Below, piece by piece: positions 11,475-63,596 of a stretch of 64,000 bases of DNA (the first letter of the stretch is position 1; each line of letters starts with the position of its first letter). The position numbers and the translations under genes were made by a program. The notes beneath the pieces are model-generated. The model did no database searches, was not told the DNA's origin, and saw only the letters and a program-made list of their open reading frames with translations. Origin of the DNA: an uncultured bacterium (GTDB lineage: Bacteria > Patescibacteriota > Dojkabacteria > J137). The stretch covers positions 176,271 through 240,270 of the forward strand of contig OY969472.1 in the NCBI GenBank assembly GCA_963700155.1, given 5' to 3'.

Positions 11475-11580
11475 CTTTTAAATTTAAATATAATAATATC
11501 TTCCAACGGAATTATATCAATATTATTTGGGATATTCTATCTTATATTAGTTTATACAGCTTTTAAGTAATTCTCTTTTT

Positions 11581-15000: not shown

Positions 15001-18000
15001 GCACTTCCATAACTTCCTGCGGATACTGCAGTATTAGCTAAGTTTATAGTTGCTGATCCTCCTAACGCTAATGGTGAACCCCCTGTTATACTTATACCTG
15101 TTCCATTATTTAGAGTTACACTTGAATTTGCAAGATTAGCATTTGTTATTCCTGCACTTCCTGACAGATTGGAATTAGTTAATCCTGTTATTGTATTTGA
15201 ACCAGCTGCAATAGTTTTATTTGTTAGTACATCAATCGATGTAGGAGTAATATACCCTGCATCATTTGTCCATTGAGAAATATTTGCTGAAGTGAAGTTT
15301 GATGTTGTTAATCCTGAAATAGCAACACTTGCAGCGGCAGTTAACCTACCTTGAGCATCAACTGTAAATGTACCAATTGTTGAACCACTTCCATATGATC
15401 CTGGGGTAACAGTAGTATTTGCAATATTAATCGTTACAGTACCACTTCCATTATTAACTGTTGTGATTCCTGTACCTTGTGCTAAGGTAAGCGTTCCCCC
15501 ATCTGAAATTGTAGAATCAGAACCAGAACCTGCTGTAAGAGTAAACGATCCACCTCCGCTGGAACCTATGCAATCAACCCAGGAACTATTTTCAAAACAT
15601 CTAAATTTATCATTTGTAGTATTATAATAAATTCCACCGTTTGCCCCTGTAGGATCATTTGTCCCATTATCCAATACTAGTAAATCAGGAGTGTCTGTCC
15701 CACTATTCCCAATTAGAACCTGGCCGCTAGAACCAGTACTTCCAATTGTAAAATTTGCATTACCTGTACCTGATTTGATATTTAATGCTGTTGTAGTTGT
15801 ATTATTGCCTATTGTTATAGTTTTTGCATTTGTACTTGTTCCCAAATTTACCGCCCCTGTTGTACCTGAATCTAAAGTTAAGGCAGTTGCATTACCTGAT
15901 TTAACCGTTAAAGCTCCTCCTCCTGTGACAATTGCTCCTGCAGCTCCTAAATTAATCGCTGTAGCTGCTCCACCAACATTTAGTGTAGTAACATTTGTAT
16001 TGAATAAGTTTGCATTAGTAGCAGTTGTTGTTAAATCACCACCATTAACTCCAATATCACCTGCTGTAATAATGTTAAAGGCTCCAGTCTGATTCCAATC
16101 TTCAGTTAAATCTCCAAGGGAGACTGTATTTCCACTATTATTAAGTCCACTTGCAAAAGTAAAACTTGCGTTAGCTGAAAGTTGTACCCATCCACCAATA
16201 TGTGTTGAATATGTATATGAGATATCATGGTAAGCACTATTAGTATTTCCTACATAAAGTGCATCATTGTTGTTTGGAGATTCTGTTGTATATGTAAAAC
16301 TTCCTGGAGAACCACCAGAGATATGAATTTGATAATCTTTAAGTCCGGAAAGTGAACCTGCAGGAGTTGTACTTGAATTAAATGCAACTCCAAAACTATC
16401 ACCAACTGTTAGTGACTTTATTAAGACCCAAGTTGGATCTTGATATTGAACAAGATCACCAGGTGCAAATCCTGACCATACTCCTGTATTTCCACCAGTA
16501 TTAATCAAATAAGTATCATTATTTACTGGTGATCCAGGAGGAGTGCTTGCATCCTCTATTACATTTATTTCTTCTAACGGGTTATGCCATACAAGACCTG
16601 TAGCAATGTTATCAACATAAGTTTTTACAGCATTTTGAGTAGGATATAAAACGTCTGATGTTCCTAATGTTGTTGATGTCGATTTATTAGCAACATTTTC
16701 AGGGGTAAAGCCTAAAGCATCTTGCTTTCCATTAAACGTATTCCAGTCAGTTGATGTTAAAAATCCTGTTAAGGTAGAACTGGCAGCTTGGTCACCATCA
16801 TAATTCAGTGAAATAGCACCACTAGAATCAATAGTAGCATCTCCACTCAGAACCCTAGTAACCCAAGATGTACCGCTTCCAATTAATAAATTACCAGCAG
16901 TTGGAGTTGTTAAACCTAAAGTATTCCCATTAATCTTAGCTACAGTTGTAGCACCTTGTGTTCCTGTAACATCTCCGGCTAATGAACCTGTAAAATTTGT
17001 TGCAGATGTAGCTGTCGAAGCATTCCCTGAGACATCTATTGAATAGGTACCTGTGTTTATAACAGTGGAATAATTTCCAGCAGTAAGATTTGTTGCTGTT
17101 AAATTTGTTATTGTATTAAGTGATGCATTAATAGTTTTATTAGTTAATTCTTGTGTTGAACTTGCAGTGACATAACTAGAATCATTTGTCCATTGTGAAA
17201 TATTTGAAGATCCAAAATTGCTTACTGTTAAACCAGATATCCCAACATTACTTGCAGCAGTTAGTCTACCTTGAGCATCAACTGTATAAGTAGGAATAGT
17301 CGCTCCACCACCATAACTTCCAGCTGTCACAGTTGTATTTGCTAGGTTAATTGTTATTGTGCCTGATCCGCCGTTTACAGTTGTAATACCTGTGCCTTGT
17401 GATAATGTTAATGATCCCCCCTGTGATATGGTACTGTTGCTTCCACTACTAGCTACCGCAGTAAATAGGCTTCCTCCACTAGTTATACATGTAGTACAAG
17501 TTAATGTTAATGCAGAACCTCCAAGAGAAACTGACCCACCTCCTCCGAGTGGTCCAGAAGTATTTACAGTTACACTCGAATTTGCTAATTGAGAATTTGT
17601 TATTCCAGCTGTACCTGAAAGGTTTGTTGTTGTTAAACCTGCAATTGCTGTATTACTTGCAGAAGTTAACCTACCTTGCGCATCCACGGTAAATGAAGGC
17701 ACAGTAGTTCCACTACCATAACTCCCCGCAGTAACTAAAGTATCAGATAGATTAACCGTTGCTATACCTCCAAGAGCTAATGAACTACCTCCAGTAACAC
17801 TAATTCCTAAACCACTGTTTAATGTCACATAAGGAGTTGCTAAATTAGCATTTGTTATTCCCGCACTTCCAGATAAACTCGTATTAGTTAATCCCCCAAT
17901 TGCTACATTACTGGCTGAAGTCAACCTTCCATAAGTATCAACAGTAAATACTGGTACAGAATTCGAAGTCCCATAAGTAGCTGCAGTAATTCCTGATGGA

Positions 18001-18659
18001 CTTAACGCTGAACAAGATGGACAATCAATTGTTAATGAACCACCCAAACTAACTGAACCACCACCGGTTATTGGTCCTGATGTTTTTATATTTAAACTAG
18101 AATTCGCCAATTGTGAATTGGCTAACCCGAAAATACTATTTTGATCAAAATTTGAACCATTACCATTTGCTCCAACTATAGCAATGTCTCCAATATTAGT
18201 TCCGGGTACTCTTCCTTGAAGATACTCAGCATTTAAATTATTAATCAGACCAGTATCAGGGATTATAAGATATGAACTAGAAATAAGCTTAAGTGGTACT
18301 GTTGGGCTAAGTGTACTTGTTGGAGTTTCAGACTGTTGGCCACTATTATTACTTCCAAACCCACCTGTTCCTCCTGTACCCCCAGTCCCTCCATTATTAT
18401 TTGAAGAGCTTCCAGATGGATTAATCTGTAATACCTGGTTTGTATCTAATATAGTAACTTTTGTAACTTGATTGTAAGCATCTGGATTTACTGGTTTAAG
18501 CAAATCTAAAGATACTCTTCCAACAGGTTGAAATATACTTTGCAAAAAAGATGGCTGCTGCTCTTCAACACCATTTGTAACACCACCATTAGTATAGCCA
18601 AGTAAGTCAGAAGTTTGAGTCTGGGAAGAAATTAAACAATAAAAATAATAACAGTACAA
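12081..18659 (-). CDS. Giant (>=2192 aa) Gly/Thr/Ser/Asn-rich repeat protein, adhesin- or fibre-like. The start is probably wrong and it is likely fused to 18607..18978 by a +1 frame change.
   Basis: At least five copies of an approximately 100-aa module (..SGSAGITNANLANSSVTLN.G.GISITGG..LALGG.ATINLANT.V.AGSYGS...IPTYTVDAQGRLTAA.NVAISGLTT.N). Two copies of a G.IYYN..N.KFRC(F/Y)EN..W..CIG motif resembling phage tail-fibre-type repeats. A non-repetitive C-terminal domain. The track start is a TTG, and no Met occurs in the first roughly 700 residues. No signal peptide. Confidence 0.75.
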   Translation of the reverse strand: MYCYYFYCLISSQTQTSDLLGYTNGGVTNGVEEQQPSFLQSIFQPVGRVSLDLLKPVNPDAYNQVTKVTILDTNQVLQINPSGSSSNNNGGTGGTGGTGGFGSNNSGQQSETPTSTLSPTVPLKLISSSYLIIPDTGLINNLNAEYLQGRVPGTNIGDIAIVGANGNGSNFDQNSIFGLANSQLANSSLNIKTSGPITGGGSVSLGGSLTIDCPSCSALSPSGITAATYGTSNSVPVFTVDTYGRLTSASNVAIGGLTNTSLSGSAGITNANLATPYVTLNSGLGISVTGGSSLALGGIATVNLSDTLVTAGSYGSGTTVPSFTVDAQGRLTSASNTAIAGLTTTNLSGTAGITNSQLANSSVTVNTSGPLGGGGSVSLGGSALTLTCTTCITSGGSLFTAVASSGSNSTISQGGSLTLSQGTGITTVNGGSGTITINLANTTVTAGSYGGGATIPTYTVDAQGRLTAASNVGISGLTVSNFGSSNISQWTNDSSYVTASSTQELTNKTINASLNTITNLTATNLTAGNYSTVINTGTYSIDVSGNASTATSATNFTGSLAGDVTGTQGATTVAKINGNTLGLTTPTAGNLLIGSGTSWVTRVLSGDATIDSSGAISLNYDGDQAASSTLTGFLTSTDWNTFNGKQDALGFTPENVANKSTSTTLGTSDVLYPTQNAVKTYVDNIATGLVWHNPLEEINVIEDASTPPGSPVNNDTYLINTGGNTGVWSGFAPGDLVQYQDPTWVLIKSLTVGDSFGVAFNSSTTPAGSLSGLKDYQIHISGGSPGSFTYTTESPNNNDALYVGNTNSAYHDISYTYSTHIGGWVQLSANASFTFASGLNNSGNTVSLGDLTEDWNQTGAFNIITAGDIGVNGGDLTTTATNANLFNTNVTTLNVGGAATAINLGAAGAIVTGGGALTVKSGNATALTLDSGTTGAVNLGTSTNAKTITIGNNTTTTALNIKSGTGNANFTIGSTGSSGQVLIGNSGTDTPDLLVLDNGTNDPTGANGGIYYNTTNDKFRCFENSSWVDCIGSSGGGSFTLTAGSGSDSTISDGGTLTLAQGTGITTVNNGSGTVTINIANTTVTPGSYGSGSTIGTFTVDAQGRLTAAASVAISGLTTSNFTSANISQWTNDAGYITPTSIDVLTNKTIAAGSNTITGLTNSNLSGSAGITNANLANSSVTLNNGTGISITGGSPLALGGSATINLANTAVSAGSYGSATNIPTYTVDAQGRLTAAANVAISGLTTTNLSATAGITNSQLANSSVTIGTTGPLGGGGSATLGGAGLTLTCATCLTSGGSIFTASASSGTNSTISQGGTLLLAQGTNITTTNNGSGTITLATVSNPTFATGLTVTTGAINLTSTSGALALSGLSASSISTGANLLTLTSSNINTTSTGINGTAIGTTTPSTGAFTTIAGTSEVLTSTTTLTNALLINQTTGGTLTNALNITRTAGTVTNGIQFNGTIGTDITTAAARALTIESGTTGSITIGGDASAETINVGTGAAAKTLVLGSATSTSTTTIQSGTGNINLQVAGTGTTGSVQIGAGGSGSATPDLLKVDVKNTSGDPTGTNGAIYYNSNTNKFRCYENGAWTNCIGGTGINLQHDAAYKTSDSFINISSSSQTTLGTVSVTPGSTTDDVYVSGFADLHSGNNTDQPFTLTIETTNNCSGTTVGNATVTYTISTNNSNTTPVGNLHIYGVASNPGNSAQSYSLCASVAAGDTNIYDWGLEALVIGTSGGANSNPAANSSTESVDDSSITSPTPGTSPTWGTEIEVLTPTNPTISPDNTSQRILITGAIEYTNPSGGDDTETAVRIRVRRGSGNCSGLQIGNDFVAAMTDPIQQIWIPFTVIDSPASTSPQTYTVCASTRDTNGSFGNNATIDEVMLTIQEIAASGADLAEIYPTTDNLNLGEVVSIDPTLELGVRKSQGTDDAKVLGVVSTRPGMVLDDGKTLGNGSIVPVALSGRVPVKVTTENGPIEAGDYLAPSSTPGVAMKSKGSGLAIGMALTNFDDQGIGEVTMFVNLNYLGNGLAVNNDLNPNSESGSTPLEQLLKISDAKLSLDKVLSVNNSIEAKSYTNISGFDLTMQIVSNENAFKLLDAGGNTLLGVDTNGKLTLKSGPNSSIGQANIASGETEITVDNTSVTEDSHIQLTSNQFVLPIVKSIIPGQGFTIEIEKAQETDVKIDYLIIN

Positions 18660-20582: not shown

Positions 20583-21659
20583 CTATCTTTCTCGAAATTT
20601 ATATGCTGGAAGATTTTGATCTTTTATATCGATTTGGTAAGTGTGGAATTTGTAATTTGGATGCTGTATAGAAACATTATATTTCCCAATTGGGATTTCT
20701 TGTTCAGAGAATCTACCATCTTGTGAACTTACTGCTTGAAAAGTTGAGTTATCTTCAAGATTTGTAAATGTAATTGATGCTTGAGAAATTGGATTATCTC
20801 TTTTATCTACAATAACTCCAAATACATTTTTTGTAGTTTTTACTACTGGAGTTACAACCATTCCGCTATTTCTTCCTATAGTTGATTGTATAGGATGATT
20901 TTGAGGATATTGCTGATTATTCATATTAATCAACTTAATTTCGCTATAAAGATCATTAATTCGAGAAAGAATTTCCTGTTCTTTTGGTTTATTATTTGTA
21001 TCTTTATTTAATCTTGACAATTCATATTTTAGTTTATTAATCTCGTTTTGGTAATCCTGAATTGAAATTGGTCTTGTCTGTTGTTGTTTATTAATAGTTT
21101 GTTGAAATTGTTGTTGGTTTTGTATCTGAGGAAGGGCTTTTTGTTGAATATTTCCTGAAAACTCTTGAGAGTATAATCTATCCAAGTTGGATTTCCTTAC
21201 TGGGTCACTTTCAAATGGAGTCTCAAGTTCAGTATATTCTTCAGGTTCTGCCTTTGAACTAAAAAGCTTGTCTAATGGAATTTTTGTTATATCAATTTTT
21301 TCCTCATTTTTCATCGAAGATACTTTTTGAGATTTTTTCACTTCTTTCTCTCCTTTTGCTTGTAATAGTTCTGGTGTAGATTCTTTCTTCATCCATACGT
21401 ATCTTGGTGAAATGAAAATTGACTTAATAAATCCAAACAACCAAACTCCAAAATTTTCATTAAGTGCAATTAAAATTCCTATTGCAACTGATAATAATAT
21501 TAGTGGTATTTTTATTAAAAGAGGGATGATCGGAAGCAAATAGATTACTACACCAACTAAACAACCAATAATAATCTTTGAAAACTGTTTTAAAGTAAAG
21601 CTTCCAAAAAGTTTAAATTCTACATCAATTATATTTTGTGGTACTGGATGTTGTTCCAA
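20583..21659 (-). CDS. Hypothetical membrane protein with a Gln-rich linker and a C-terminal carboxypeptidase-regulatory-like beta domain
   Basis: Two N-terminal TM helices, a Q/N-rich low-complexity middle, and a C-terminal VIVDKRDNPISQASITF...GKYNVSIQHPNYKF. Confidence 0.45.
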   Translation of the reverse strand: MEQHPVPQNIIDVEFKLFGSFTLKQFSKIIIGCLVGVVIYLLPIIPLLIKIPLILLSVAIGILIALNENFGVWLFGFIKSIFISPRYVWMKKESTPELLQAKGEKEVKKSQKVSSMKNEEKIDITKIPLDKLFSSKAEPEEYTELETPFESDPVRKSNLDRLYSQEFSGNIQQKALPQIQNQQQFQQTINKQQQTRPISIQDYQNEINKLKYELSRLNKDTNNKPKEQEILSRINDLYSEIKLINMNNQQYPQNHPIQSTIGRNSGMVVTPVVKTTKNVFGVIVDKRDNPISQASITFTNLEDNSTFQAVSSQDGRFSEQEIPIGKYNVSIQHPNYKFHTYQIDIKDQNLPAYKFRER

Positions 21660-32335: not shown

Positions 32336-32428
32336 AAATAAATTATATCAGAAGTTTTATGAAAGTCTTGTGATTTCTATAATCTTTTTTATAAAAGGAA
32401 CATAGAGTATAATTCTACTGAAATTCAA

Positions 32429-35591: not shown

Positions 35592-35786
35592 AGTTTACTA
35601 ATTATAATAATTAAAATTTTATATAGATTTTACCCCTTAAAAATATTTAAACCAACTTTGTCTTTTGGTAAAGCTCGTCACTGCTGACGAGAGAATTGTA
35701 GTCTGTTTCCAGATCTACACTTCTACAAAGTTGGTTTAACTTTTAGCTTCAGATCTACAAATCAACGATTTTGATACTGTTATGGA

Positions 35787-36035
35787 TCAGCCACCGAACC
35801 AGGAGCCGAAGCCACCTTTTTTTTCCTTCTTGCCCTTGCGGTCTTTGACAACACCCGTCTCGATGGTCAGTTTGCGCCCGTTGTCGTGATCGGTCTGGTG
35901 ATCCCCTGTCTTCGATCCATCAGGGTGGCGATCATGAGACCGGTGTAAACCGGGCTGGTGTTTTACCGTGTGAACATACGGTTTTCCATTCTTATCTTTC
36001 TTGTTCTCATTTTTCGTTGTATGTTTCCTAACCAC
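35787..36035 (-). CDS. GC-rich small His/Lys/Gly/Asp-rich hydrophilic protein (disordered, possibly stress- or metal-related)
   Basis: GTG start 5 nt after a strong AGGAGGTG SD. No hydrophobic core. About 50% GC against roughly 30% flanks. The 5'UTR has a GTGTCCGAAAAGGAACAC hairpin. Confidence 0.45.
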   Translation of the reverse strand: MVRKHTTKNENKKDKNGKPYVHTVKHQPGLHRSHDRHPDGSKTGDHQTDHDNGRKLTIETGVVKDRKGKKEKKGGFGSWFGG

Positions 36036-37142: not shown

Positions 37143-37994
37143 ATGATGATTATTAAGACATACATTCCAAGCTCACCTTTAAATACATTTATAAAAGTTA
37201 TGTGGATTTCCGAAGGGGTAGCACAAACAAAAAGGATTAAGATTCTCCCCGACACATCACTTCATCTAATGATCAATTTAGGTGAGCCTTATAGAATATA
37301 CAAAACAGATACCGTGGAATGTATTACAACATGTAAAGAAAGTTGGTGCGTAGGAATATGGAAGAATTCCCACTTAATGGATTACCCCACTAAAATGCAT
37401 ATCTTAAATATTACGTTTTTACCTGGTGGAGCATTTCCATTTATTGGTTATCCAGCGATTGAGGTGGAAAACAATATTGTTCCACTAGAGGCAATTTGGG
37501 GATCTAAAGCTTTGGAGTTACGAGAGAAACTTTATTATGCACGTTCTGCAGATGAACGATTTAAAATTCTTGAAGTAAGTTTATTTCAAAGATTGAAAAA
37601 TACTGAAATATCAAAAGAACTTATTATGATCCAAGATGTTATTCGTCAAATTTCAGTTAATAATGGAGTTTTATCTATCTCTTCATTAAGTGAACTTTAC
37701 AATATTAGTCAAAAACACTTGATACATTTGTTCCTTAAGTTTGTGGGGGCTACTCCAAAAGAAGTTGCCAAGATATTTCGATTTAACTTTATACTTTCGC
37801 AAATAAATTCTAATTCCGACATAAACTGGACAAATATTTCTCAAGATTCCGGATACTATGATCAGTCTCATTTTAATAAGGACTTTAAATCATTCACTCA
37901 GATGACACCAAGTGAATATTTGAAGGAAACAATATTGGCAAATGGGAGGGTTCCGGAGTTGTCCTCTTCCCCAAATAATTTAGCAACTGGTTAA
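37143..37994 (+). CDS. AraC-family transcriptional regulator
   Basis: The C-terminal dual HTH (ISQKHLIHLFLKFVGATPKEVAKIFRFNFILSQI ... SGYYDQSHFNKDFKSFTQMTPSEYL) is diagnostic of AraC/XylS. Confidence 0.8.
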   Translation: MMIIKTYIPSSPLNTFIKVMWISEGVAQTKRIKILPDTSLHLMINLGEPYRIYKTDTVECITTCKESWCVGIWKNSHLMDYPTKMHILNITFLPGGAFPFIGYPAIEVENNIVPLEAIWGSKALELREKLYYARSADERFKILEVSLFQRLKNTEISKELIMIQDVIRQISVNNGVLSISSLSELYNISQKHLIHLFLKFVGATPKEVAKIFRFNFILSQINSNSDINWTNISQDSGYYDQSHFNKDFKSFTQMTPSEYLKETILANGRVPELSSSPNNLATG

Positions 37995-39714: not shown

Positions 39715-39756
39715 GGCGCGGCGTTAAATGCCGCGCCATCTCAACCTTGCTAATTA
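39715..39756. repeat. Cassette-1 3' element: GGCGCGGCG-TTAAA-TGCCGCGCC hairpin plus terminal IR AACCTTGCTAATTA
   Basis: Nearly identical elements at 40943-40980 and 41751-41782. The 14-bp IR partner TAATTAGCAAGGTT is at 40798-40811. Confidence 0.85.
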
Positions 39757-40635
39757 TCAATTAGTCCGACGCCTGATCATCTCCAGTACTTGTTGGGCTT
39801 GATATGTAGAACAGGATGGGGTAAGCCCCCATACATGAGTATTGTCGTCTGTCAGGTATATAGGTTCACGGGTAAGCCAGGCGTTCGAATATAAGCCATT
39901 TCGCACTACAATCATCCACTCTCCTTCTGTTGGAAGAAGTTGTTTCGACATTAGCCCATCGGTGTCAAAGAGTGGAGTCCAGTATCCGCCTGGACCATTC
40001 TTAATCTGACCTGCGACTTCACCATTGATCTTATAAATGACTTCTCCGAAGTCGCAGAACGGGACATCCTCACCAGGGCTTGGTGCCACATAGTCGGACG
40101 TCTTGTCGAAATCCACCCACACTGACGCTTCAGAGCCATCAATTCCGACCCGGACAGCGTTACCCTCGCAGGATTGCACTGTGGTGTCGTAACCAATGAC
40201 CGAGATCCCCGCTTCAAGCTGAAGCTGGGAGTCAAGATAAATCTCGACGCTCGGCGGAACGCGAATCGGATTATCGATAGCGCAATGCCTTACTGTCTCC
40301 TGCACTCCGCCAAGTTGATCAGTGTAGCTGGAGGTTTCATCGAAATCCGCCAAGTCTACCCACACACCAGCATCCACACTAGCTACTGATCTATCGTGGA
40401 AAATGACAAGAGCTGCATTTCCCTGGCATGCTCTAACTTCACCATCGAAGCCAGCGATCAAGGATCCAGCACTAACTTGAAGCTGAGAGTCAAGGTAAAG
40501 TGCAGTACCTGCTGGAACATGAATCGAGGGGAGTCCTGTGACACAGTAACGCTGATGAACATCCTGCCCAAGAGCAGGCTGAATCAGTCCGATAGTGAGC
40601 AATACGCCCACGAATATTACCACTAATTTCTTCAT
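39757..40635 (-). CDS. Secreted protein, paralogue 1 of a three-member family (two internal about 70-aa repeats plus a shared C-terminal domain). GC-rich.
   Basis: Signal peptide MKKLVVIFVGVLLTIGLIQPALGQ. Internal duplication YCVTGLPSIHVPAGTALYLDSQLQ... and HCAIDNPIRVPPSVEIYLDSQLQ.... C-terminus GEWMIVVRNG...HVWGLTPSC...VLEMI is shared with paralogues 2 and 3. Confidence 0.7.
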   Translation of the reverse strand: MKKLVVIFVGVLLTIGLIQPALGQDVHQRYCVTGLPSIHVPAGTALYLDSQLQVSAGSLIAGFDGEVRACQGNAALVIFHDRSVASVDAGVWVDLADFDETSSYTDQLGGVQETVRHCAIDNPIRVPPSVEIYLDSQLQLEAGISVIGYDTTVQSCEGNAVRVGIDGSEASVWVDFDKTSDYVAPSPGEDVPFCDFGEVIYKINGEVAGQIKNGPGGYWTPLFDTDGLMSKQLLPTEGEWMIVVRNGLYSNAWLTREPIYLTDDNTHVWGLTPSCSTYQAQQVLEMIRRRTN

Positions 40636-40724: not shown

Positions 40725-40782
40725 TTAAAGATGCGCAAACTAACCTCATTTTATTTTTAAAGTCAGTTTGCGCATCTTAAAG
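40725..40782. promoter_or_regulatory. Large palindromic operator-like element upstream of paralogue 1 (TTTAAAGATGCGCAAACTAAC ... GTCAGTTTGCGCATCTTAAAG)
   Basis: A roughly 21-bp inverted repeat around a 16-nt AT spacer. It is related to the elements upstream of paralogues 2 and 3. Confidence 0.55.
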
Positions 40783-40942
40783 TACAAACTCAAGCAATAA
40801 TTAGCAAGGTTGTTAATGAACTGTAAAACTAACAAATGATTAGAATTTACAAGGGGATTATATCATGGTGATATACTTATGTCACATTAAAGTATCATAG
40901 GTACTTATTTAGGAAGGAATTAAGGAAGTTAGATTAGGTTCA

Positions 40943-40980
40943 GGCGCGGCGTTAAACGCCGCGCCTTCTCAACCTTGCTA
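40943..40980. repeat. Cassette-2 3' element: GGCGCGGCGTTAAACGCCGCGCC hairpin plus AACCTTGCTA
   Basis: A perfect 9-bp GC stem with a 5-nt loop. The IR partner AGCAAGGTT is at 41554-41562. Confidence 0.85.
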
Positions 40981-40981
40981 G

Positions 40982-41389
40982 CTATCCTAGGAAAATCCCG
41001 ATGAGATGAAGTAACCAAACGAGAAACTCGAGCTGCGGTTTTACGCACCCAATTGAATAGGTCCAAACCCTTGAGCCAGGTTTGACACTATCATATGGGG
41101 TTGCTGATACTTCGGCAGTGCTGAACAGTATTCGATCATTATGCAATCTTGCTACGATTAACCACTGCCCCGAAGGATTTACAAATATTGCTCCTCCGTT
41201 ATCAGTACTTAGCGAATCGAAGTACCATCCATTACTCATTGGTACCTGACGAAGCCCTTTTATTAGAATGCACTCAGTCACTCCAAGTGACATCCCCGAG
41301 CTGGAGCTATCGGCGAGAGCTGGGATAATTTGCAGTCCCAGCAATCCAATGAGCAATATGCTCACTAAGAATAATGGAATTCTATTCAT
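40982..41389 (-). CDS. Secreted protein, paralogue 2 (135 aa), GC-rich
   Basis: Signal peptide MNRIPLFLVSILLIGLLGLQIIPALA. GQWLIVARLHND...RVWTYSIGC...LEFLV aligns with the shared C-terminal domain. Confidence 0.65.
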   Translation of the reverse strand: MNRIPLFLVSILLIGLLGLQIIPALADSSSSGMSLGVTECILIKGLRQVPMSNGWYFDSLSTDNGGAIFVNPSGQWLIVARLHNDRILFSTAEVSATPYDSVKPGSRVWTYSIGCVKPQLEFLVWLLHLIGIFLG

Positions 41390-41476
41390 TCTACCTCCAT
41401 TACAAGCTACTGCAGCTTCGCTAACTCAAGGATGCTGCTACCCTTATCATCAAGTACTGAGCTCATTCGGACTCGA

Positions 41477-41524
41477 TGACGCGCAAAGTAACTTAAAATT
41501 TAATTATCGTCACTTTGCGCGTCA
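41477..41524. promoter_or_regulatory. Palindromic operator-like element upstream of paralogue 2 (TGACGCGCAAAGTAAC-N16-GTCACTTTGCGCGTCA)
   Basis: A 16-bp IR with one mismatch. Near-identical copy at 42479-42526. Confidence 0.6.
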
Positions 41525-41553
41525 CCAATCTTAAAATTTTCAAGGATATTATC

Positions 41554-41650
41554 AGCAAGGTTATCAGTAATCTTTCATAGCTTTCGCATATGATTTTGAT
41601 TACTAACAACATTAATCCCATAAGTGGGATTGCTGTTATTAATGTGCTTA
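41554..41650. repeat. Conserved about 100-nt AT-rich structured block (AGCAAGGTTATCAGTAATCTTTCATAGCTTTCGCATATGATTTTGATTACTAACAACATTAATCCCATAAGTGGGATTGCTG...)
   Basis: Repeated at 42555-42660 with a few substitutions. Contains AGTAATC/GATTACT and AATCCCA/TGGGATT hairpins. Confidence 0.8.
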
Positions 41651-41750
41651 TAATACTATTATACACTAAGAGATTATTTTATATAATATAAGAAGTATAT
41701 AAGGATTTTAAAGATATCTATATTTATTTGAAAGTTATCAGGCGCGGCGT

Positions 41751-41782
41751 TAAACGCCGCGCCTACATCGATAACCTTGCTA
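41751..41782. repeat. Cassette-3 3' element: GGCGCGGCGTTAAACGCCGCGCC hairpin plus AACCTTGCTA (overlaps the stop codon)
   Basis: As for cassettes 1 and 2. The IR partner CATAGT..TAGCAAGGTTAT is at 42543-42566. Confidence 0.85.
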
Positions 41783-42406
41783 ACTATGCATAATCTCCAA
41801 GATGTGATCAAGATCCCCCTGATCACACCCATTGTTCAGCGCCCAGACGTGGGCGCCGAAAATCGAGCTGACGAACGTGTAATTGACAAACCGAGCGGTC
41901 TGCCAGAGATCGTTGCCTTCAGGTCCTTTGTCCACTACTAAGAGCAGTTGCCCGTAATAGTGGAGATCAGTCGAGGGATGAACAAAGACGATTCCTCCTT
42001 GATTAGTCTCACGACCGGCATGATAATCTCCGTCACCGATGGCGTCGCCGCCAAAAACCTTCTGAATACGGCAGATCGGGCGAGTAACTTGCGGTCCATC
42101 AGGCATAATTGAGCCTTCAAAGATGGAATTCCTTATATCATCAACCGCAACCCATAACCGATGATCGGAGCCGTGAATACTGATCTCTGCTGAATCGATG
42201 TCATCTGCGCAAGTATTCACAACAGCACCAAATCCTTCCGTTGTCAGACCATATTGTTCGGTCCGACCCGCGTCATTGAATAGCCAGGTGCCTGGCTGGA
42301 CAATTACGTAGCCATTCGTACATGCCACATTTTCTTGCCCGATGGCTGGCGTAACCAGCATGGCTGAAAGGACAATGAACACAATGAACAGAACTAGCTT
42401 CTTCAT
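41780..42406 (-). CDS. Secreted protein, paralogue 3 (208 aa), GC-rich
   Basis: Signal peptide MKKLVLFIVFIVLSAMLVTPAIGQ. The C-terminus GQLLLVVDKG...HVWALNNGC...ILEIM aligns with paralogues 1 and 2. Confidence 0.7.
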   Translation of the reverse strand: MKKLVLFIVFIVLSAMLVTPAIGQENVACTNGYVIVQPGTWLFNDAGRTEQYGLTTEGFGAVVNTCADDIDSAEISIHGSDHRLWVAVDDIRNSIFEGSIMPDGPQVTRPICRIQKVFGGDAIGDGDYHAGRETNQGGIVFVHPSTDLHYYGQLLLVVDKGPEGNDLWQTARFVNYTFVSSIFGAHVWALNNGCDQGDLDHILEIMHS

Positions 42407-42478
42407 TTTCTTATCTCCGTTTTGAACTCTTTCTCTCGAAGTATGCTTATCATCTTCCCGAATGATTCCTGGGTTTAA

Positions 42479-42526
42479 TGACGCGCAAAGTAACTTAAAA
42501 TTTAATTATTGTCACTTTGCGCGTCA
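42479..42526. promoter_or_regulatory. Palindromic operator-like element upstream of paralogue 3
   Basis: TGACGCGCAAAGTAACTTAAAATTTAATTATTGTCACTTTGCGCGTCA. Confidence 0.6.
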
Positions 42527-42554
42527 CTAACTTTCAGTTCTAACATAGTTATAT

Positions 42555-42660
42555 TAGCAAGGTTATCAGTAATCCTTTCATAGCTTTCACATATGATTTT
42601 GATTACTAACAACATTAATCCCATAAAAGGAATTGCTGTTGTTAATGTTCTAAGTAAACT
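42555..42660. repeat. Second copy of the conserved about 100-nt block, beginning with TAGCAAGGTT
   Basis: See 41554-41650. Confidence 0.8.
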
Positions 42661-42774
42661 CATAAATGAATCTACTCGATTGAATTATATCATCGGTATA
42701 TATTTCTTATCAAACTTTTATTTATGAATAAGTTAACTTTAAAATTTCTTTTTCAAAAGCTATACTATTGATAT

Positions 42775-43245
42775 ATGGAAATAAAAATAAGTAAAAATAA
42801 AATAAGTTTATTTTTCAAAATATTAATAACATCAATAATTTTATTAGCTGTACTTGCTTTCTTTCTACCATTTATAGAAAAAGACGCTTCGAGTTTTGAT
42901 AATAGCAATGTTAACTCAAATGGGTATATTGATAACTTGGGATATGTTAATTATTCTCCAGCCATAAAGAGCTTTTCAAATAAAAAGAATGTTTTATTCT
43001 TTAAAGCAAATTGGTGTTCCACTTGTACAACGGCTGATCTGAACTTTCAGAAAGAACTTCAAAATAAAAGTATTCCAAACTACTTAACTATTTATAAAGT
43101 AGATTTTGAAAAAGATGTTGCCTTAAAACAGAAATACGGAGTAACTCTTCAACATACTTTTGTTCAGGTAGATAATAACGGAAATGAACTAAAAAAATGG
43201 ATCGGAAGTTATACTATTGATGAAGTTCTTAAAGAAATCGTTTAA
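42775..43245 (+). CDS. Thioredoxin-fold protein with an N-terminal TM anchor (CxxC)
   Basis: TM ILITSIILLAVLAFFLPF. FFKANWCSTCTTAD is a thioredoxin-like CxxC active site. Confidence 0.55.
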   Translation: MEIKISKNKISLFFKILITSIILLAVLAFFLPFIEKDASSFDNSNVNSNGYIDNLGYVNYSPAIKSFSNKKNVLFFKANWCSTCTTADLNFQKELQNKSIPNYLTIYKVDFEKDVALKQKYGVTLQHTFVQVDNNGNELKKWIGSYTIDEVLKEIV

Positions 43246-43721
43246 ATTACATCTTCAATCTGAGGATTACATAATATCAGCCAATTTTTTGAATTCATTA
43301 ATATTGAAATTGATCTATCCCCAGCATTAAATGCTATTTCATCATTATTTAATAAAGTTTTTTCAGCAATCATTTTTATTCCAAAAAGATTTCCAAAAGG
43401 TGGCACTCCACCAGGAATTACACCGTTTGTAATCTGAAATACTTCATCAGCAGTAGCAAAACTTAGTTTATTTATTCCTAGAATACCTCTGACTTTTTTA
43501 GAATCAAATCTTTGATCACCAGGGACAATAACCATTGCAAATTCATAAACTTTATCTTTGTTTTTATATTTGACTATTAATGCTTTTGCTCCTTGAGTAA
43601 TGCTAATGTCACCTCTTACCTTTGCTGCTTCTTCAGAGGTCCTTACAGGTTCATGCCTAAATTCTTTATATGAAATATTATTATCTTTTAGTAGCTGATT
43701 AATTTTTTCGTATGTGTTCAT
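43242..43721 (-). CDS. ybaK: YbaK/ProX-family aminoacyl-tRNA deacylase (Cys-tRNA(Pro) trans-editing)
   Basis: GAKALIVKY...VIVPGDQRFDSKKV...TNGVIPGGVPPFG matches the YbaK/EbsC deacylase domain pattern. Confidence 0.7.
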   Translation of the reverse strand: MNTYEKINQLLKDNNISYKEFRHEPVRTSEEAAKVRGDISITQGAKALIVKYKNKDKVYEFAMVIVPGDQRFDSKKVRGILGINKLSFATADEVFQITNGVIPGGVPPFGNLFGIKMIAEKTLLNNDEIAFNAGDRSISILMNSKNWLILCNPQIEDVI

Positions 43722-43786: not shown

Positions 43787-44218
43787 TTATTTCTTTGTTG
43801 TAGTTTTCTTAGTTGCAGTTTTTTTTGCAGCTGACTTTGTTACCTGTTTTTTTACTGTCGAAGTTTTTTTAATTATTGGTTTCGTATCAACTTTAGTTGA
43901 TGGCATTACATCTATTTCTGTAGGCTTAACTTCTCCACCTTGAACAACAGCTGAAGCACTCTCAACAACATCAACATATTTTTGATGTCTTTTATATCCT
44001 GTCATTCTTCTGAATGCAACGAAGCCTAGTTTTGTTGCATAAAGTGTGAAATCTCTTCCTTGTTTAACATTTACACCTGGATAAAATTCAGAACCTCTTT
44101 GTCTGACAATAATTTCTCCTGGATTAACTTTTTCTCCACCAAATTTTTTAATGCCTAGTCTTTTTCCTATGACATCAACTGTTCTTTTTGCTGAACCGGT
44201 GGCGGCTGAATGTGCCAT
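43787..44218 (-). CDS. rpmA: 50S ribosomal protein L27 with a Lys/Thr-rich C-terminal extension
   Basis: RLGIKKFGGEKVNPGEIIVRQRGSEFYPGVNVKQGRDFTLYA is the conserved L27 core. Confidence 0.9.
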   Translation of the reverse strand: MAHSAATGSAKRTVDVIGKRLGIKKFGGEKVNPGEIIVRQRGSEFYPGVNVKQGRDFTLYATKLGFVAFRRMTGYKRHQKYVDVVESASAVVQGGEVKPTEIDVMPSTKVDTKPIIKKTSTVKKQVTKSAAKKTATKKTTTKK

Positions 44219-44546: not shown

Positions 44547-44675
44547 ATTGAATATTTATTTTTTAGGCTGATGTAGTGTACTACAAAGCACAATTTATAT
44601 CAAGAATTATAGCATAGACTTGCTTATTTGTGAGTATATATACTATATTTATTATTATTTTGTTAAGTTATATAT

Positions 44676-45407: not shown

Positions 45408-45436
45408 ATAAAATTGGGGAAAGCGAAGCTTTCCCC
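45408..45436. terminator. Bidirectional intrinsic terminator between convergent genes (AATTGGGGAAAGC-GAA-GCTTTCCCCAATT)
   Basis: A perfect 13-bp inverted repeat with a G/C core, flanked by A/T runs on both sides. It sits between the stop of 45015..45404 and the stop of thrS. Confidence 0.7.
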
Positions 45437-45463
45437 AATTACTTTTAACTTTGAAAGTATAAG

Positions 45464-56341: not shown

Positions 56342-56365
56342 CCCCCAGCATGTTAAAATGCATGG

Positions 56366-59707: not shown

Positions 59708-61418
59708 ACAAATTCTTTAAAGTTATGAAAATATTCCTGATTAATTCTAAATTAGAGGGAACAAGGGCAAATCTTTCAAGATCCTTGAAAGATTTGCCCT
59801 CAGGATCTCCCAAAAAATATGCATTCAACATATTAATAGCATCATCAACCTCAAGTGGGATCTGATCTTCAACTGATACTTTAGCTTTCTCAGTTTCTTT
59901 TTCTCTCCATTTATTATTAAAGAAATTTCTAAACCTTGAAACTGGAATCTTGTTAGCAACTTTCATAAAGTTTGAAGTAGATTCTCTAGATTCTACTTCC
60001 TGCTCAACAGCTCCTTTTCTATCATTCAATTTTGCGAATTTTTGATTAACAGCCTCAAGATCACTCCCTATTGTATTTGATTTTTCAACGTCTTTATCAA
60101 GCAATTTTGCGTTTACTTCTGACTTTACTTCAGGATTAATAAGCAAAATTGCTTTCACTAAATTCTGTAAGTTTGCAGTCCTCTTGCCTTCATTATCTGG
60201 AGTTCTATCAACAATAAGCAGTACAACATTTGCTAACGATTCTATACTTTGAGTATTTAAAAAATTTAAGATTAATTCCAAAGGATCCTGTTTTAAACTT
60301 CTTAAGGACAAACTTAATAATCTTTCAAAAGTATAAAAGCTTGCAGGATCGTTTATTAGAGATAAAAGCTTTTGCCCAACTTGATTATTAAAATTATCAG
60401 ACCAAACTTTTGGGGATTGTTCTTCACTGTCTTGTAAATCTGAAACTATAACTTGAATTTCTCTATTAGTTGAATTTGCTGATAAATTATTAACTTCTCC
60501 TAAAATTTTTATTTCTAACTCTTCATCAAATTTTTCAATTGTTTCTGTTTCTGGTTCTTTAGCAACTTCATTTTCAGATGCAACTTCTTCTACTTTAGAT
60601 TCTAGTAACATTGATTCAGATATGTCTTTTACAGTCTGTAATATTTCCGGCTCATCTTTGACTTTCTCTCTAGTCATTTCAACAAAATTTTCTATCTGGG
60701 CTTTTGGAAACAAATTCTTATCTACAGTCTCCAATAACTTATTAAAGAATGATTTCCTTGTTTGGAATAATACCGATAAAAATTTGAAAAGTTTAAAATT
60801 TCTAGGACTATTCCTAAAATACAAATACATTATTGTATCTGCAATTTCTGGTTCTGAATCTATTAATAAAGGATCTCCTGCTAGTGTATATAAGACTTTG
60901 TATAGGAGCTTGCCTAATAAAAGTCCTTCAAATTTTTCTCTATTATCAATAAGATATCTTATTACTATATTTGCAAAAAATAAATTTTTAGAAATAGATG
61001 ATGCTAAATTTACGTCCAAAAGTGTTATATATTTTTGAGAATCATAAAATTCCATATCAAACTTACCATAAGCTTCGGCAAATCTTTCAATAAGATCAAG
61101 ATCTTTTATTTCAGTAAAATCAAAATTAGGAGCTCCTTTTATTAATGCAGAGACAATTTCAGGAAAATTATCTAAAGTATAAACTGCTTTTTCTTTTCGT
61201 TCACAAAGTGTATTTAACAAATCTATTAAAAAACTTAATTGATCTTCATTCAATGGGGAATTAATTTTCTCAAAATAACTTGAAATTTCATCAAGTGCTG
61301 AATTACCAACATCGATATTAGAAGAAAATAAATTATTCTTTAATGATGATAGATCTATTGTGTTAACAGCTATATTAGGAGCTTCATTTACTTCTGCTAT
61401 TGCAGGATTATCAGCCAT
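59655..61418 (-). CDS. Hypothetical 587-aa helical, acidic protein
   Basis: ORF only. Confidence 0.45.
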   Translation of the reverse strand: MADNPAIAEVNEAPNIAVNTIDLSSLKNNLFSSNIDVGNSALDEISSYFEKINSPLNEDQLSFLIDLLNTLCERKEKAVYTLDNFPEIVSALIKGAPNFDFTEIKDLDLIERFAEAYGKFDMEFYDSQKYITLLDVNLASSISKNLFFANIVIRYLIDNREKFEGLLLGKLLYKVLYTLAGDPLLIDSEPEIADTIMYLYFRNSPRNFKLFKFLSVLFQTRKSFFNKLLETVDKNLFPKAQIENFVEMTREKVKDEPEILQTVKDISESMLLESKVEEVASENEVAKEPETETIEKFDEELEIKILGEVNNLSANSTNREIQVIVSDLQDSEEQSPKVWSDNFNNQVGQKLLSLINDPASFYTFERLLSLSLRSLKQDPLELILNFLNTQSIESLANVVLLIVDRTPDNEGKRTANLQNLVKAILLINPEVKSEVNAKLLDKDVEKSNTIGSDLEAVNQKFAKLNDRKGAVEQEVESRESTSNFMKVANKIPVSRFRNFFNNKWREKETEKAKVSVEDQIPLEVDDAINMLNAYFLGDPEGKSFKDLERFALVPSNLELIRNIFITLKNLYESNNPKGFQRKSSNDS

Positions 61419-63565: not shown

Positions 63566-63596
63566 AAAAATATTTTAACATGAGGGACATTATAAA

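Follow-up and report, generated by a model that had tools for sequence, protein, structure and literature searches.

Three large palindromes precede three tandem genes for secreted proteins in this genome, and the question is whether they are sites read in duplex DNA by a regulator, sites for a recombinase, or structures that act once transcribed. The analysis covered the whole 64-kb stretch of DNA, referred to here as the window. The sequence-only reading had described three inverted repeats upstream of secreted paralogues and proposed a dimeric-repressor operator or a recombinase site. Its coordinates and sequences hold, as does its view of the sites as one common, nonrandom cis-element linked to the gene trio; all three open reading frames (ORFs) lie on the minus strand, a point it had left unstated, and have signal-peptide-like N termini. 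The operator and recombinase functions are not favored here. A larger repeated module, undescribed in that reading, includes the palindromes as one of its elements, and our preferred interpretation, to which we assign about an even chance, is that each forms a sense-strand 5'-UTR hairpin serving RNase III-type processing, mRNA stabilization, or protein binding.

The palindromes and their gene array

All features of the trio are on the minus strand. The first palindrome, P1 (40725-40782), has a stem of CUUUAAGAUGCGCAAACUGAC and GUUAGUUUGCGCAUCUUUAAAG, which contains a single bulged U and a single G.U pair and closes an AT-rich loop of ~17 nt; its 20-nt arms are 90% complementary, and the spacer is 17 nt rather than the 16 nt first reported. 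In both P2 (41477-41524) and P3 (42479-42526), the core consists of two 16-nt arms around an AT-rich spacer of 16 nt. G.U pairs on the minus strand lengthen both stems to an unbroken 20 bp, giving hairpins at 41473-41528, with three sense-strand G.U pairs, and at 42475-42530, with two, each with a 16-nt AT-rich loop. P3 is 96% identical to P2, and each of the three palindromes lies upstream of a minus-strand ORF, at a distance of 74 to 94 nt from the ATG.

The half-site GCGCAAASTNAC occurs eight times in the 64-kb window against an expected 0.59, and six of these occurrences are palindrome arms. The other two fall within unrelated ORFs, at 35866 and 13521; the former was considered as a further copy of the module and taken as chance, as it sits in an unrelated small ORF without a module. 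A motif search across the genome had been proposed as a check; over the 64 kb, a covariance model run with its filters off returned P1 to P3 only.

ORF1 (39757-40635) encodes 292 amino acids with a signal-peptide-like N terminus and an internally duplicated N-domain (GC, 0.50; GC3, 0.47). ORF2 (40982-41389; 135 amino acids; GC3, 0.43) encodes a secreted paralogue that has only the C-terminal domain in common, and ORF3 (41780-42406; 208 amino acids; GC3, 0.51) encodes another. The relationship among the three is weak, with BLASTP E values of 8e-8 to 4e-3 and identities of 21 to 31%. Pfam searches with the three proteins found nothing, and a k-mer protein search returned the query itself only, so that the sole clear database match of ORF3 was ORF3. 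An exhaustive profile search of 1.84 billion representatives (~15 billion proteins) gave no clear homologue outside the window ORFs; beyond those three, it produced two marginal matches (E values of 1.6e-4 and 7.7e-4). The predicted structure of ORF3, with a pLDDT of 55, was of too low confidence for a fold search.

The array, of ~3 kb, is also foreign in composition, with a GC3 of 0.43 to 0.51 versus 0.15 to 0.22. GTDB relatives at 64 to 65% ThrRS identity have no synteny in common with this region. The closest syntenic relative, Logan contig L147 (ThrRS, 79%), keeps the order ThrRS-L21-L27-YbaK-Trx but lacks the island, the motif, and any GC-rich insert. On sequence grounds, the 3-kb array is a horizontally acquired, lineage-specific island.

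Conserved base pairing and a repeated frame

Folding of the palindromes is exceptionally stable, with z scores of -8.5 to -8.7 against 200 dinucleotide shuffles, none of which folded equally well. It is also strand specific. As sense RNA, P1 has a minimum free energy of -31.9 kcal/mol (z = -8.5), P2 of -32.5 kcal/mol (z = -8.7), and P3 of -30.1 kcal/mol, versus -21.5 to -24.9 kcal/mol for the antisense RNAs of P1 and P2; RNA folding thus favors the sense strand by 7 to 11 kcal/mol, a preference that shrinks to ~2 kcal/mol under DNA parameters. The covariance model scores 80 to 90 bits on the sense strand versus 45 to 49 on the antisense strand (P2, 89.5 versus 45). Every non-Watson-Crick position in the stems is a sense-strand G.U pair (1, 3, and 2 in P1 to P3, respectively), with no antisense G.U, and these positions would be A.C mismatches on the opposite strand; within the palindromes, this asymmetry amounts to ~3 independent events (one-sided p of ~0.125).

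Comparison of P1 with P2 and P3, effectively two independent sequences, revealed four stem differences, all four compensatory. Pairs altered on both sides number 4 of 20, a figure reached by 6 of 500 shuffles, although such counts cover four to five events, and related sequences can beat shuffles without any structure. The stem core contains no disruptive changes, and 98.3% of the alignment cells are paired versus 30 to 47% in slid controls. Intrastrand template switching can keep palindromes perfect without selection. We nevertheless argue for selection, because the hairpin is kept in three of three units, with compensatory changes, despite saturated divergence of the ORFs. The aligned stems indicate that base pairing is what is conserved in the palindromes.

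Each palindrome belongs to a frame with a fixed order: promoter, long structured leader, 5' AACCTTGCTA motif, hairpin, Shine-Dalgarno (SD) sequence, ORF, 3' TAGCAAGGTT motif, and GC hairpin. We number these units U1 to U3 with their ORFs. The two boundary motifs can also be written as AACCUUGCUA, in the leader, and UAGCAAGGUU, which overlaps or abuts the stop codon. In U1, the 5' motif CAACCTTGCTAATTAT (40797-40812) is a perfect 16-nt complement of the 3' motif ATAATTAGCAAGGTTG (39742-39757), which abuts the ORF1 stop codon; the predicted duplex has a free energy of -26.9 kcal/mol. In U3, GATAACCTTGCTAATA (42552-42567) is a perfect 14-nt complement of TTAGCAAGGTTATC (41770-41783), whose TAG is the ORF3 stop codon (-27.3 kcal/mol). 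Between the U1 and U3 pairings, the outer pair covaries from C-G to U-A. For these two units the end motifs match best within the unit, with matches between units of 9 to 12 nt. The U2 5' motif, GATAACCTTGCTGATA (41550-41566), pairs better with the 3' motif of the upstream unit than with its own, ATAGCTAGCAAGGTTG (40970-40985), which overlaps the ORF2 stop codon. By sequence inspection and duplex folds, this U2 motif pairs via wobbles, not mismatches.

GC hairpins follow ORF1 (39715-39737; GGCGCGGC-AUUUAAC-GCCGCGCC; -18.3 kcal/mol), ORF2 (40943-40965; GGCGCGGCG-UUUAA-CGCCGCGCC; -23.0 kcal/mol), and ORF3 (41741-41763; -23.7 kcal/mol), in each case without a U tract. The U1 GC hairpin has a sense-strand A.C at the loop edge, a counterexample to the wobble pattern. 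We considered these hairpins as target hairpins of diversity-generating retroelements (DGRs) and rejected the idea by inspection, as the C termini lack variable-repeat character and the scanned ORFs include no reverse transcriptase.

The distal leader contains a further repeat, an 86-nt block in U2 (41572-41657) with the hairpin AAUCCCA-CUUA-UGGGAUU and a second stem, beginning at the predicted transcription start site (TSS). The corresponding U3 block (42575-42660) is 88% identical. Similarity between the two starts at ~41651/42654, the predicted U2 TSS, and continues through the palindrome hairpin. By inspection, a C-to-U change in the distal leader hairpin gives a sense-strand U.G in U3. 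An upstream ORF or leader peptide was also considered and rejected; a 1-nt indel breaks the apparent reading frame between U2 and U3, so the block is noncoding. Overall, the noncoding frames, within intergenic modules of 346 to 390 bp, are 78 to 88% identical (distal leader, 88% for U2 versus U3; 3' motif plus GC hairpin, 78 to 86%), whereas the identity of the mature coding sequences equals the shuffled baseline. Near-constant frames around fully diverged ORFs would imply strong structural constraint, or else concerted evolution or cassette exchange, and we regard this as the more intriguing part of the locus.

Leader hairpin or duplex-DNA operator

The position of the palindromes relative to predicted promoters bears directly on their function. 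U1 has a promoter-like site at 40857-40885 (GTGACA-17-TATAAT with TG), and U3 has one at 42684-42713 (TTGATA-18-TATAAT with TG); the TGATATAAT boxes of both are perfect and host type. The U2 -10 element, TGTATAAT (41658-41665), is a weaker call, read from the sequence and with a poor -35. These promoters and start sites are consensus predictions in AT-rich DNA, in which 13 of 23 TGnTAnAAT boxes are intergenic versus the ~16% of the sequence that is noncoding, an enrichment. A sigma-54 reading of the TTGCT sequence, with -24/-12 elements, was discarded on inspection, as the GG-GC spacing is wrong.

Host genes begin 7 to 60 nt past TGnTAnAAT boxes, and the host's own genes in the window mostly have very short leaders or none; the predicted leaders of the trio, at ~215 to 270 nt, are unusually long. 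As the TGATATAAT box lies 222 nt before the ATG in U1 and 278 nt before it in U3, the palindromes fall inside the predicted leaders, a placement that agrees with the conservation seen from the predicted TSS. Overlap with -35/-10 elements had been proposed as a check on the operator; the promoter scan found no sigma-70-like element overlapping any of the three palindromes. In the predicted transcripts the palindromes would fall at about +70 to +200, and the best boxes are 75 to 160 nt upstream of them.

Under our preferred reading, each palindrome would be transcribed within the long 5' leader of its own gene, forming a very stable minus-strand stem-loop (20-bp stem, AT-rich loop of ~16 nt, -30 to -32.5 kcal/mol). 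The leader may then be cleaved at the hairpin or held by it, leaving a processed mRNA with a protected 5' end, and the amount or translation of the three messages would be set jointly. Alternatively, the hairpin could be the site for an RNA-binding regulator. The GC hairpin would act as a stabilizer of the 3' end, and the whole frame would have changed little, even though the three secreted-protein ORFs that it surrounds in the acquired island have diverged strongly. An uninterrupted 20-bp RNA duplex is the classical size of an RNase III substrate, which makes a posttranscriptional mechanism the most probable. The palindromes have this trait, with ~20 bp or more of double-stranded RNA upheld by covariation, uninterrupted in P2 and P3 and with one bulge in P1. 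The scanned window ORFs include no RNase III gene.

A precedent is Staphylococcus aureus cspA, in which cleavage of a long 5'-UTR hairpin by RNase III increases both the stability and the translation of the mRNA (PMC3386247). Leaders of this type resemble those described here in having a long, near-perfect sense-strand stem of ~20 bp in the 5' leader, well upstream of the SD, with function residing in structure, not sequence. They differ in that the present element has no sequence or Rfam relationship to them (searches of the leaders against Rfam 15 gave chance-level matches only, with E values of 1.2 or worse, far below gathering scores), in that cleavage here is putative, and in that the element is repeated before three tandem paralogues in a foreign island, accompanied by a 3' GC hairpin and by boundary motifs that are complementary between the 5' and 3' ends. 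Further RNase III-processed or stabilizing 5'-UTR hairpins are those of Escherichia coli ompA and the leaders of phages T7 and lambda. Pairing between 5' and 3' ends occurs in hok-family mRNAs and in rRNA precursors, which likewise have a leader motif complementary to a 3' motif of the same unit, as in U1 (16 nt) and U3 (14 nt), both perfect; unlike in those systems, the pairing here is predicted, U2 favors the 3' motif of the upstream unit, and the context is neither that of a toxin nor that of an rRNA. It is an evenly balanced proposition, in our judgment, that the element is a lineage-restricted version of this known type of 5'-leader hairpin.

To our knowledge, almost nothing is known of posttranscriptional control in Patescibacteria/CPR. 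If the leader-hairpin interpretation is correct, this group would gain a candidate for a new type of cis-acting RNA leader, and an acquired set of secreted-protein genes would have arrived with a complete expression frame of its own, from the promoter through the structured leader to the 3' hairpin. The practical value is small, as the element is known from a single genome and the encoded proteins are orphans.

The best surviving alternative, which we nonetheless consider unlikely, is that both arms are bound in duplex DNA by a transcription factor, dimeric or tetrameric, which coregulates the three genes, either as a roadblock to transcription past the promoter or from a promoter that escaped recognition. 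Dyad symmetry is strong, the GC-rich core GCGCAAA is conserved in six of six arms, and the AT-rich, bendable spacer is nearly constant at 16 to 17 bp. The promoter positions that place the palindromes within leaders are themselves predictions only. The window also supplies possible regulators: the gene at 37143, the nearest regulator and outside the island, does belong to the AraC family, as the sequence-only reading had it, and a histidine kinase and a response regulator are also encoded in the window. However, as that reading also noted, there is no regulator gene inside the trio, and a foreign island absent from relatives and without its own regulator would need to recruit one from the host. 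Proteins of the AraC type usually recognize repeats that are direct or irregular. In operators for a single helix-turn-helix (HTH) dimer, half-site centers are about one to two helical turns apart, and the present arms, 16 to 20 bp long with centers 32 to 33 bp apart, are atypical. Operators of the LacI, TetR, and Cro types share with these palindromes the dyad symmetry, the conservation of a core in each arm, and use by colocated genes; here, by contrast, the sites are off the promoter, the arms covary, and the imperfections are all G.U on one strand. Compensatory changes in both arms and such one-strand wobbles are unexpected for DNA read by a protein as a duplex. Promoter distance, arm spacing, covariation, and the G.U pattern together weigh against the dimeric-repressor operator that had been proposed.

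Possible cassettes, switches, or remnants

Somewhat less probable again is a recombination site, folded as single-stranded DNA or a cruciform, in a cassette-like mobile unit whose hairpin and/or TAGCAAGGTT repeats are recognized by a recombinase encoded elsewhere. The layout is cassette-like, with near-constant noncoding frames around unrelated-looking ORFs, stop codons that abut the boundary motif, and U1 and U3 end motifs that match best within their units. Leader similarity is a mosaic, U2 resembling U3 distally and U1 proximally, and the foreign composition and the absence from the syntenic relative fit as well. Folded single-stranded DNA would also tolerate G.T wobbles, but the strand preference under DNA parameters is small. 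A Pfam scan of 49 window ORFs found no recombinase, integrase, transposase, reverse transcriptase, HUH, or RAYT protein, and the island edges show no target-site, att, or boundary repeats of 9 nt or more. Nor is there any sign of mobility, as no other copy was found in genome, metagenome, viral, phage, or plasmid collections: the exact-core palindrome pattern had no matches in 185,579 species genomes or, as a palindrome pattern, in IMG/VR; a looser pattern gave 65 matches in metagenomes, all of them unrelated hairpins that differed in their arms, had GC-rich loops, or came from high-GC hosts; and the island DNA matched nothing in phage and plasmid collections. A REP/BIME or MITE (Correia-like) repeat was likewise rejected, as the three copies in 64 kb are all within the island, with no consistent GTAG and no target-site duplications (TSDs).

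Integron cassettes are similarly tandem arrays of unrelated-looking, promoter-proximal ORFs of foreign composition, parted by conserved hairpin-forming noncoding elements that start at the stop codon. The palindrome arms, however, lack the attC R''/R' cores (RYYYAAC...GTTRRRY), with outer ends such as UUGGUGAC and GUCAUCGA, and the stems lack attC-type extrahelical bases, P2 and P3 being uninterrupted and P1 having its single bulge. There is no IntI among the 49 ORFs scanned. Whereas attC sites are found 3' of every cassette ORF, the last included, each palindrome here lies 5' of its ORF, with one before the first gene (U3) and none after the last (U1), and each unit apparently has its own promoter. 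Sites of attC type span 57 to 141 bp, versus the far longer intergenic modules here. These differences, and the absence of a recombinase from the ORFs scanned and of boundary repeats from the island edges, disfavor the recombinase site of the sequence-only reading. On sequence inspection, the sole GTTTAAC is in the loop of a separate GC hairpin.

It is improbable, though worth stating, that the units are an undescribed type of CPR gene cassette. Each would be a self-contained module for expression, with AACCTTGCTA and TAGCAAGGTT ends and a hairpin that serve in the capture and shuffling of diverse secreted-protein ORFs by recombination, without attC or IntI, or else in a programmed pathway of 5'-3' RNA pairing and RNA processing. 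Both of these uses would account for frames so alike around ORFs at random-level identity.

Quite improbable is a phase-variation switch, in which the TAGCAAGGTT/AACCTTGCTA inverted repeats flank invertible promoter spacers (40802-40980 and 41553-41782) and the palindromes are accessory, for example as insulators blocking read-through in the OFF state. Segments of 157 and ~207 bp in the promoter spacers of U1 and U2 are indeed bracketed by perfect inverted repeats of 11 to 12 bp; a promoter-like box lies in each, together with a bidirectional GC hairpin, and tandem paralogues for secreted or surface proteins follow downstream. In Mycoplasma penetrans, promoter inversion drives each of 38 mpl lipoprotein genes (PMC10502178), and mpl and E. 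coli fimS share with this locus a short promoter segment between inverted repeats of 10 to 12 bp. The likeness, however, concerns the TAGCAAGGTT repeats, not the palindromes, to which a switch gives no necessary role. Promoter inversion would be impossible in U3, the first unit, which has no second repeat; the scanned window ORFs yielded no invertase, and the match is closer between repeats on either side of an ORF than between those on either side of a promoter.

The least probable explanation is that the palindromes are terminators or attenuators, or functionless remnants of a small MITE-like insertion duplicated with the genes: a very stable stem-loop does lie between promoter and ORF, and template switching could perfect a quasi-palindrome, but remnants are disfavored by the lack of dispersed copies and TSDs and by the retention of the hairpin noted above, a competing antiterminator is implausible at -30 kcal/mol, and no copy is followed by a U tract or flagged by the terminator scan, host terminators, such as those at 45411-45441 and 59763-59801, being of a different form in which the loop is 3 nt long and A/T tracts are present.

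Three inverted repeats with conserved pairing

The three large inverted repeats picked out by the sequence-only reading are present in the DNA at the positions given: P1 (40725-40781) has 20-nt arms, 90% complementary, around a 17-nt spacer, while P2 (41477-41524) and P3 (42479-42526), which are 96% identical across 53 nt, each have 16-nt arms around an AT-rich spacer of 16 nt. Each lies upstream of a minus-strand open reading frame (ORF), namely, ORF1 (39757-40635, 292 aa), ORF2 (40982-41389, 135 aa), and ORF3 (41780-42406, 208 aa), respectively. The palindromes are far above chance expectation. The half-site pattern matches 8 times in the window (0.59 expected), and 6 of these matches are palindrome arms; folding z-scores are -8.5 to -8.7, with none of 200 shuffles folding equally well; and an unfiltered covariance model matched only P1, P2, and P3 over the 64 kb. 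One chance half-site, GCGCAAACTGAC (35866-35877), falls inside a small GC-rich ORF (35787-36035, minus strand, 82 aa, GC 0.47 versus 0.32 for the genome) that is rich in Lys, His, and Gly and has no Pfam match. Just downstream of this ORF, GTTAAACCAACTTTGT / ACAAAGTTGGTTTAAA (35650-35742) form a long-range inverted repeat that weakly matches the aspC motif (E of 1.9).

Pairing rather than sequence is conserved, on one strand, among what are effectively two independent sequences. Stem cells are paired in 98.3% of cases across P1 to P3, compared to 30 to 47% with partner columns slid. Between P1 and P2/P3, which for covariation count as two sequences, 4 of 20 stem pairs differ on both sides (U-A/A-U, C-G/U-A, G-C/C-G, and, at the stem base, G-C/A-U), a result reached by 6 of 500 shuffles. 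Template switching can perfect palindromes without selection. The minus (mRNA-sense) strand has G.U at every non-Watson-Crick stem position, of which P1 contains one, P2 three, and P3 two; none of them is G.U on the plus strand, where they would be A.C mismatches, and the asymmetry amounts to about three independent events within the palindrome. RNA folding gives -30.1 to -32.5 kcal/mol for the sense strand and -21.5 to -24.9 kcal/mol for the antisense strand (two copies folded), a difference reduced to about 2 kcal/mol by DNA parameters, and the covariance model scores 80 to 90 bits sense and 45 to 49 bits antisense. By inspection, a C-to-U change in a small distal-leader hairpin makes a U.G pair in U3, a sense-strand wobble, and the boundary motifs of U2 pair with wobbles, not mismatches; a single opposite case occurs in the GC hairpin of U1, at the edge of the loop. 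U1 to U3 here denote the repeated units, each comprising leader, ORF, and 3' elements.

A repeated frame around diverged genes

When the intergenic regions of the trio are aligned, the palindrome proves to be part of a larger module that is repeated. In gene orientation, the stop codon is followed by a TAGCAAGGTT motif and a GC hairpin, GGCGCGGCG-UUUAA-CGCCGCGCC (39715-37, 40943-65, and 41741-63), then by an AT-rich spacer with a promoter-like box, an 86-nt leader block conserved in U2 and U3, a AACCTTGCTAAT motif, about 30 nt, the palindrome, a proximal leader of 68 to 89 nt, and finally GGAG and ATG. The palindrome is tied to the 5' side of genes, being found before the first gene (U3) and not after the last (U1), and the GC hairpin is tied to the 3' side, being found after U1 and not before U3, so that each unit resembles a complete transcription unit. 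Within each unit, reverse complementarity links the 5' motif in the leader to the 3' motif at the stop codon. In U1 and U3 the best match is within the same unit, with perfect complementarity over 16 nt (-26.9 kcal/mol) and 14 nt (-27.3 kcal/mol), respectively, and an outer pair that covaries (C-G in U1, U-A in U3); for U2, pairing is slightly better with the 3' motif of U3.

Conservation sits mainly in the non-coding parts of the units. Identity is 88% in the distal leader of U2 versus U3 (shuffled baseline, 51%) and 78 to 86% in the 3' motif and GC hairpin (baseline, 34 to 44%), whereas mature coding sequence is at baseline (60 to 62% versus 53 to 58%). The similarity of the leaders is mosaic, U2 resembling U1 proximally and U3 distally. 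Such a pattern implies that the frames either are under strong structural constraint or have evolved in concert or been exchanged around ORFs that diverged. The contrast between frame and ORF, along with the possible 5'-3' pairing, is what is genuinely odd about the locus.

The predicted leaders are themselves unusual. Identical promoter-like TGATATAAT boxes precede the start codon of ORF1 by 222 nt (U1, 40865-40857) and that of ORF3 by 278 nt (U3, 42692-42684), and U2 has TGTATAAT at 41665-41658. With promoters at these boxes, the palindromes would fall between about +70 and +200 in leaders longer than is usual for the genome. Nucleotide similarity between U2 and U3 starts abruptly at about 41651/42654, near the predicted U2 start site, and extends through the hairpin; apparent small ORFs in this stretch do not keep their frame owing to a 1-nt indel, so what is conserved is non-coding. 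The putative promoter signal of the host can be recognized as a TGnTAnAAT box, which is enriched in intergenic DNA (13 of 23 matches, compared to about 16% of the window being non-coding). Host genes start 7 to 60 nt past this box and several appear leaderless, which suggests that many host mRNAs have no leader or a very short one, in contrast to the 215- to 270-nt leaders of the island genes. Five extended -10 boxes of this form (32342-32350, 56351-56359, 63572-63580, 11511-11519, and 44606-44614) end 7 nt, or 37 to 60 nt, ahead of start codons.

A leader hairpin and its alternatives

The best-supported reading, to which we give about even chances, is that the palindrome forms a stem-loop in sense-strand RNA, as part of a 5' leader that is long and structured. 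An uninterrupted 20-bp duplex is of canonical RNase III substrate size. In Staphylococcus aureus, RNase III cuts a hairpin in the long 5' untranslated region of cspA, making the mRNA more stable and better translated (PMC3386247). By analogy with the cspA leader, the hairpin would control the three genes jointly, at the level of processing, stability, or translation; the GC hairpin would protect the mRNA 3' end. The element has no Rfam family match and no homologue in any collection searched, and it is best described as a lineage-restricted structured 5'-leader hairpin on a foreign island of a CPR bacterium, where it forms part of an unusual expression frame that is repeated. Support comes from three copies in one genome.

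The sequence-only reading was right that a cis-element is shared by the three genes, but the dimeric repressor operator or recombinase site that it proposed is unlikely. A duplex-DNA operator acting as a roadblock retains a small chance: the gene at 37143-37994 is, as claimed, of the AraC family, but the position, spacing, and covariation of the palindromes disfavor an operator, and the check for overlap with -35/-10 elements that had been suggested shows no sigma-70-like site overlapping any of them. Slimmer still is the chance of a single-stranded DNA or cruciform recombination site. Because near-constant frames surround diverged ORFs, the locus looks cassette-like, which makes this reading attractive, but attC cores are lacking, the palindrome lies 5' of each ORF, which is the wrong side, the 49 window ORFs scanned yielded no recombinase, and no sign of mobility appeared in any collection searched. 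Promoter inversion at the TAGCAAGGTT repeats, as known for the mpl genes of Mycoplasma penetrans (PMC10502178), is improbable, as it leaves the palindromes unexplained and the second repeat is missing in U3. Least probable is a terminator, attenuator, or functionless remnant, given the absence of a U tract, a shape that differs from host terminators, and the retention of the hairpin with compensatory changes.

A conserved hairpin with 23-bp arms and variable loops, CCGAGTCGGCGCAAAGTGACCCC-loop-GGGGTCACTTTGCGCCGACTCGG, recurs in short intergenic gaps of 13 soil-metagenome contigs with a GC content of about 70% (8592-8625 in L001, 12154-12187 in L019, 2517-2551 in L040, and 10 further loci). This hairpin has no Rfam family match and has the look of a repeat family, REP-like or terminator, that is as yet undescribed, and the 12-nt core that it has in common with P2/P3 arises largely because the search pattern forced the match.

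The island, its proteins, and their surroundings

ORF1 to ORF3 each have a signal-peptide-like N terminus and a GGAG Shine-Dalgarno sequence and are weak paralogues (21 to 31% identity, BLASTP E values of 8e-8 to 4e-3). When 1.84 billion representatives were searched exhaustively with a profile, these three and two marginal matches were returned and nothing else; there is no Pfam match, and the AlphaFold model is unusable (pLDDT of 55). All three proteins come from one 1.14-Mb contig, and each is a singleton at the 90% identity level. The family is an orphan.

The window is otherwise ordinary chromosome of a small-genome bacterium, encoding KsgA, MurJ, PNPase, CCA-adding enzyme, Def, ZnuABC, RadC, ThrRS, L21/L27, SufB, and Dus; a Pfam scan of 49 of its ORFs turned up no recombinase, integrase, transposase, or reverse transcriptase. 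The closest ThrRS in the species-genome collection is from Patescibacteria metagenome-assembled genomes (64 to 65% identity). A closer relative, the contig L147, was recovered via the neighboring YbaK-like gene (79% identity for ThrRS, 78% for L21, and 80% for L27); it keeps the order ThrRS-L21-L27-YbaK-Trx and has no island, motifs, hairpin-model match, or GC-rich segment. ORF1 to ORF3 have a GC content of 0.44 to 0.50 and a GC3 of 0.43 to 0.51, compared to a GC3 of 0.15 to 0.22 for host genes. Foreign in composition and absent from L147, the 3-kb array is thus an insertion specific to this lineage, in a region that varies. No repeats of at least 9 nt occur at its flanks.

The island starts just past the promoter of a Trx-like gene (42775-43245, plus strand), which converges on and overlaps by 4 nt the YbaK-like gene (43242-43721, minus strand). 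In relatives (contigs L146 and L147), a DsbD_TM (CcdA-like) gene comes after the membrane-anchored thioredoxin-like gene, a partner missing at this locus. The L27 protein (43787-44218, minus strand) has 143 aa, with a C-terminal tail of about 50 aa rich in Lys, Thr, and Ala, compared to 115 to 117 aa in the nearest relatives (L147 and a further contig, L148). Elsewhere on the minus strand are a giant ORF (12081-18659) that starts with TTG and encodes 2192 aa and, adjoining RadC, a fusion (20583-21659) of an N-terminal region of the PrgI family (type IV secretion-like) with a beta-sandwich domain of the CarboxypepD_reg type.
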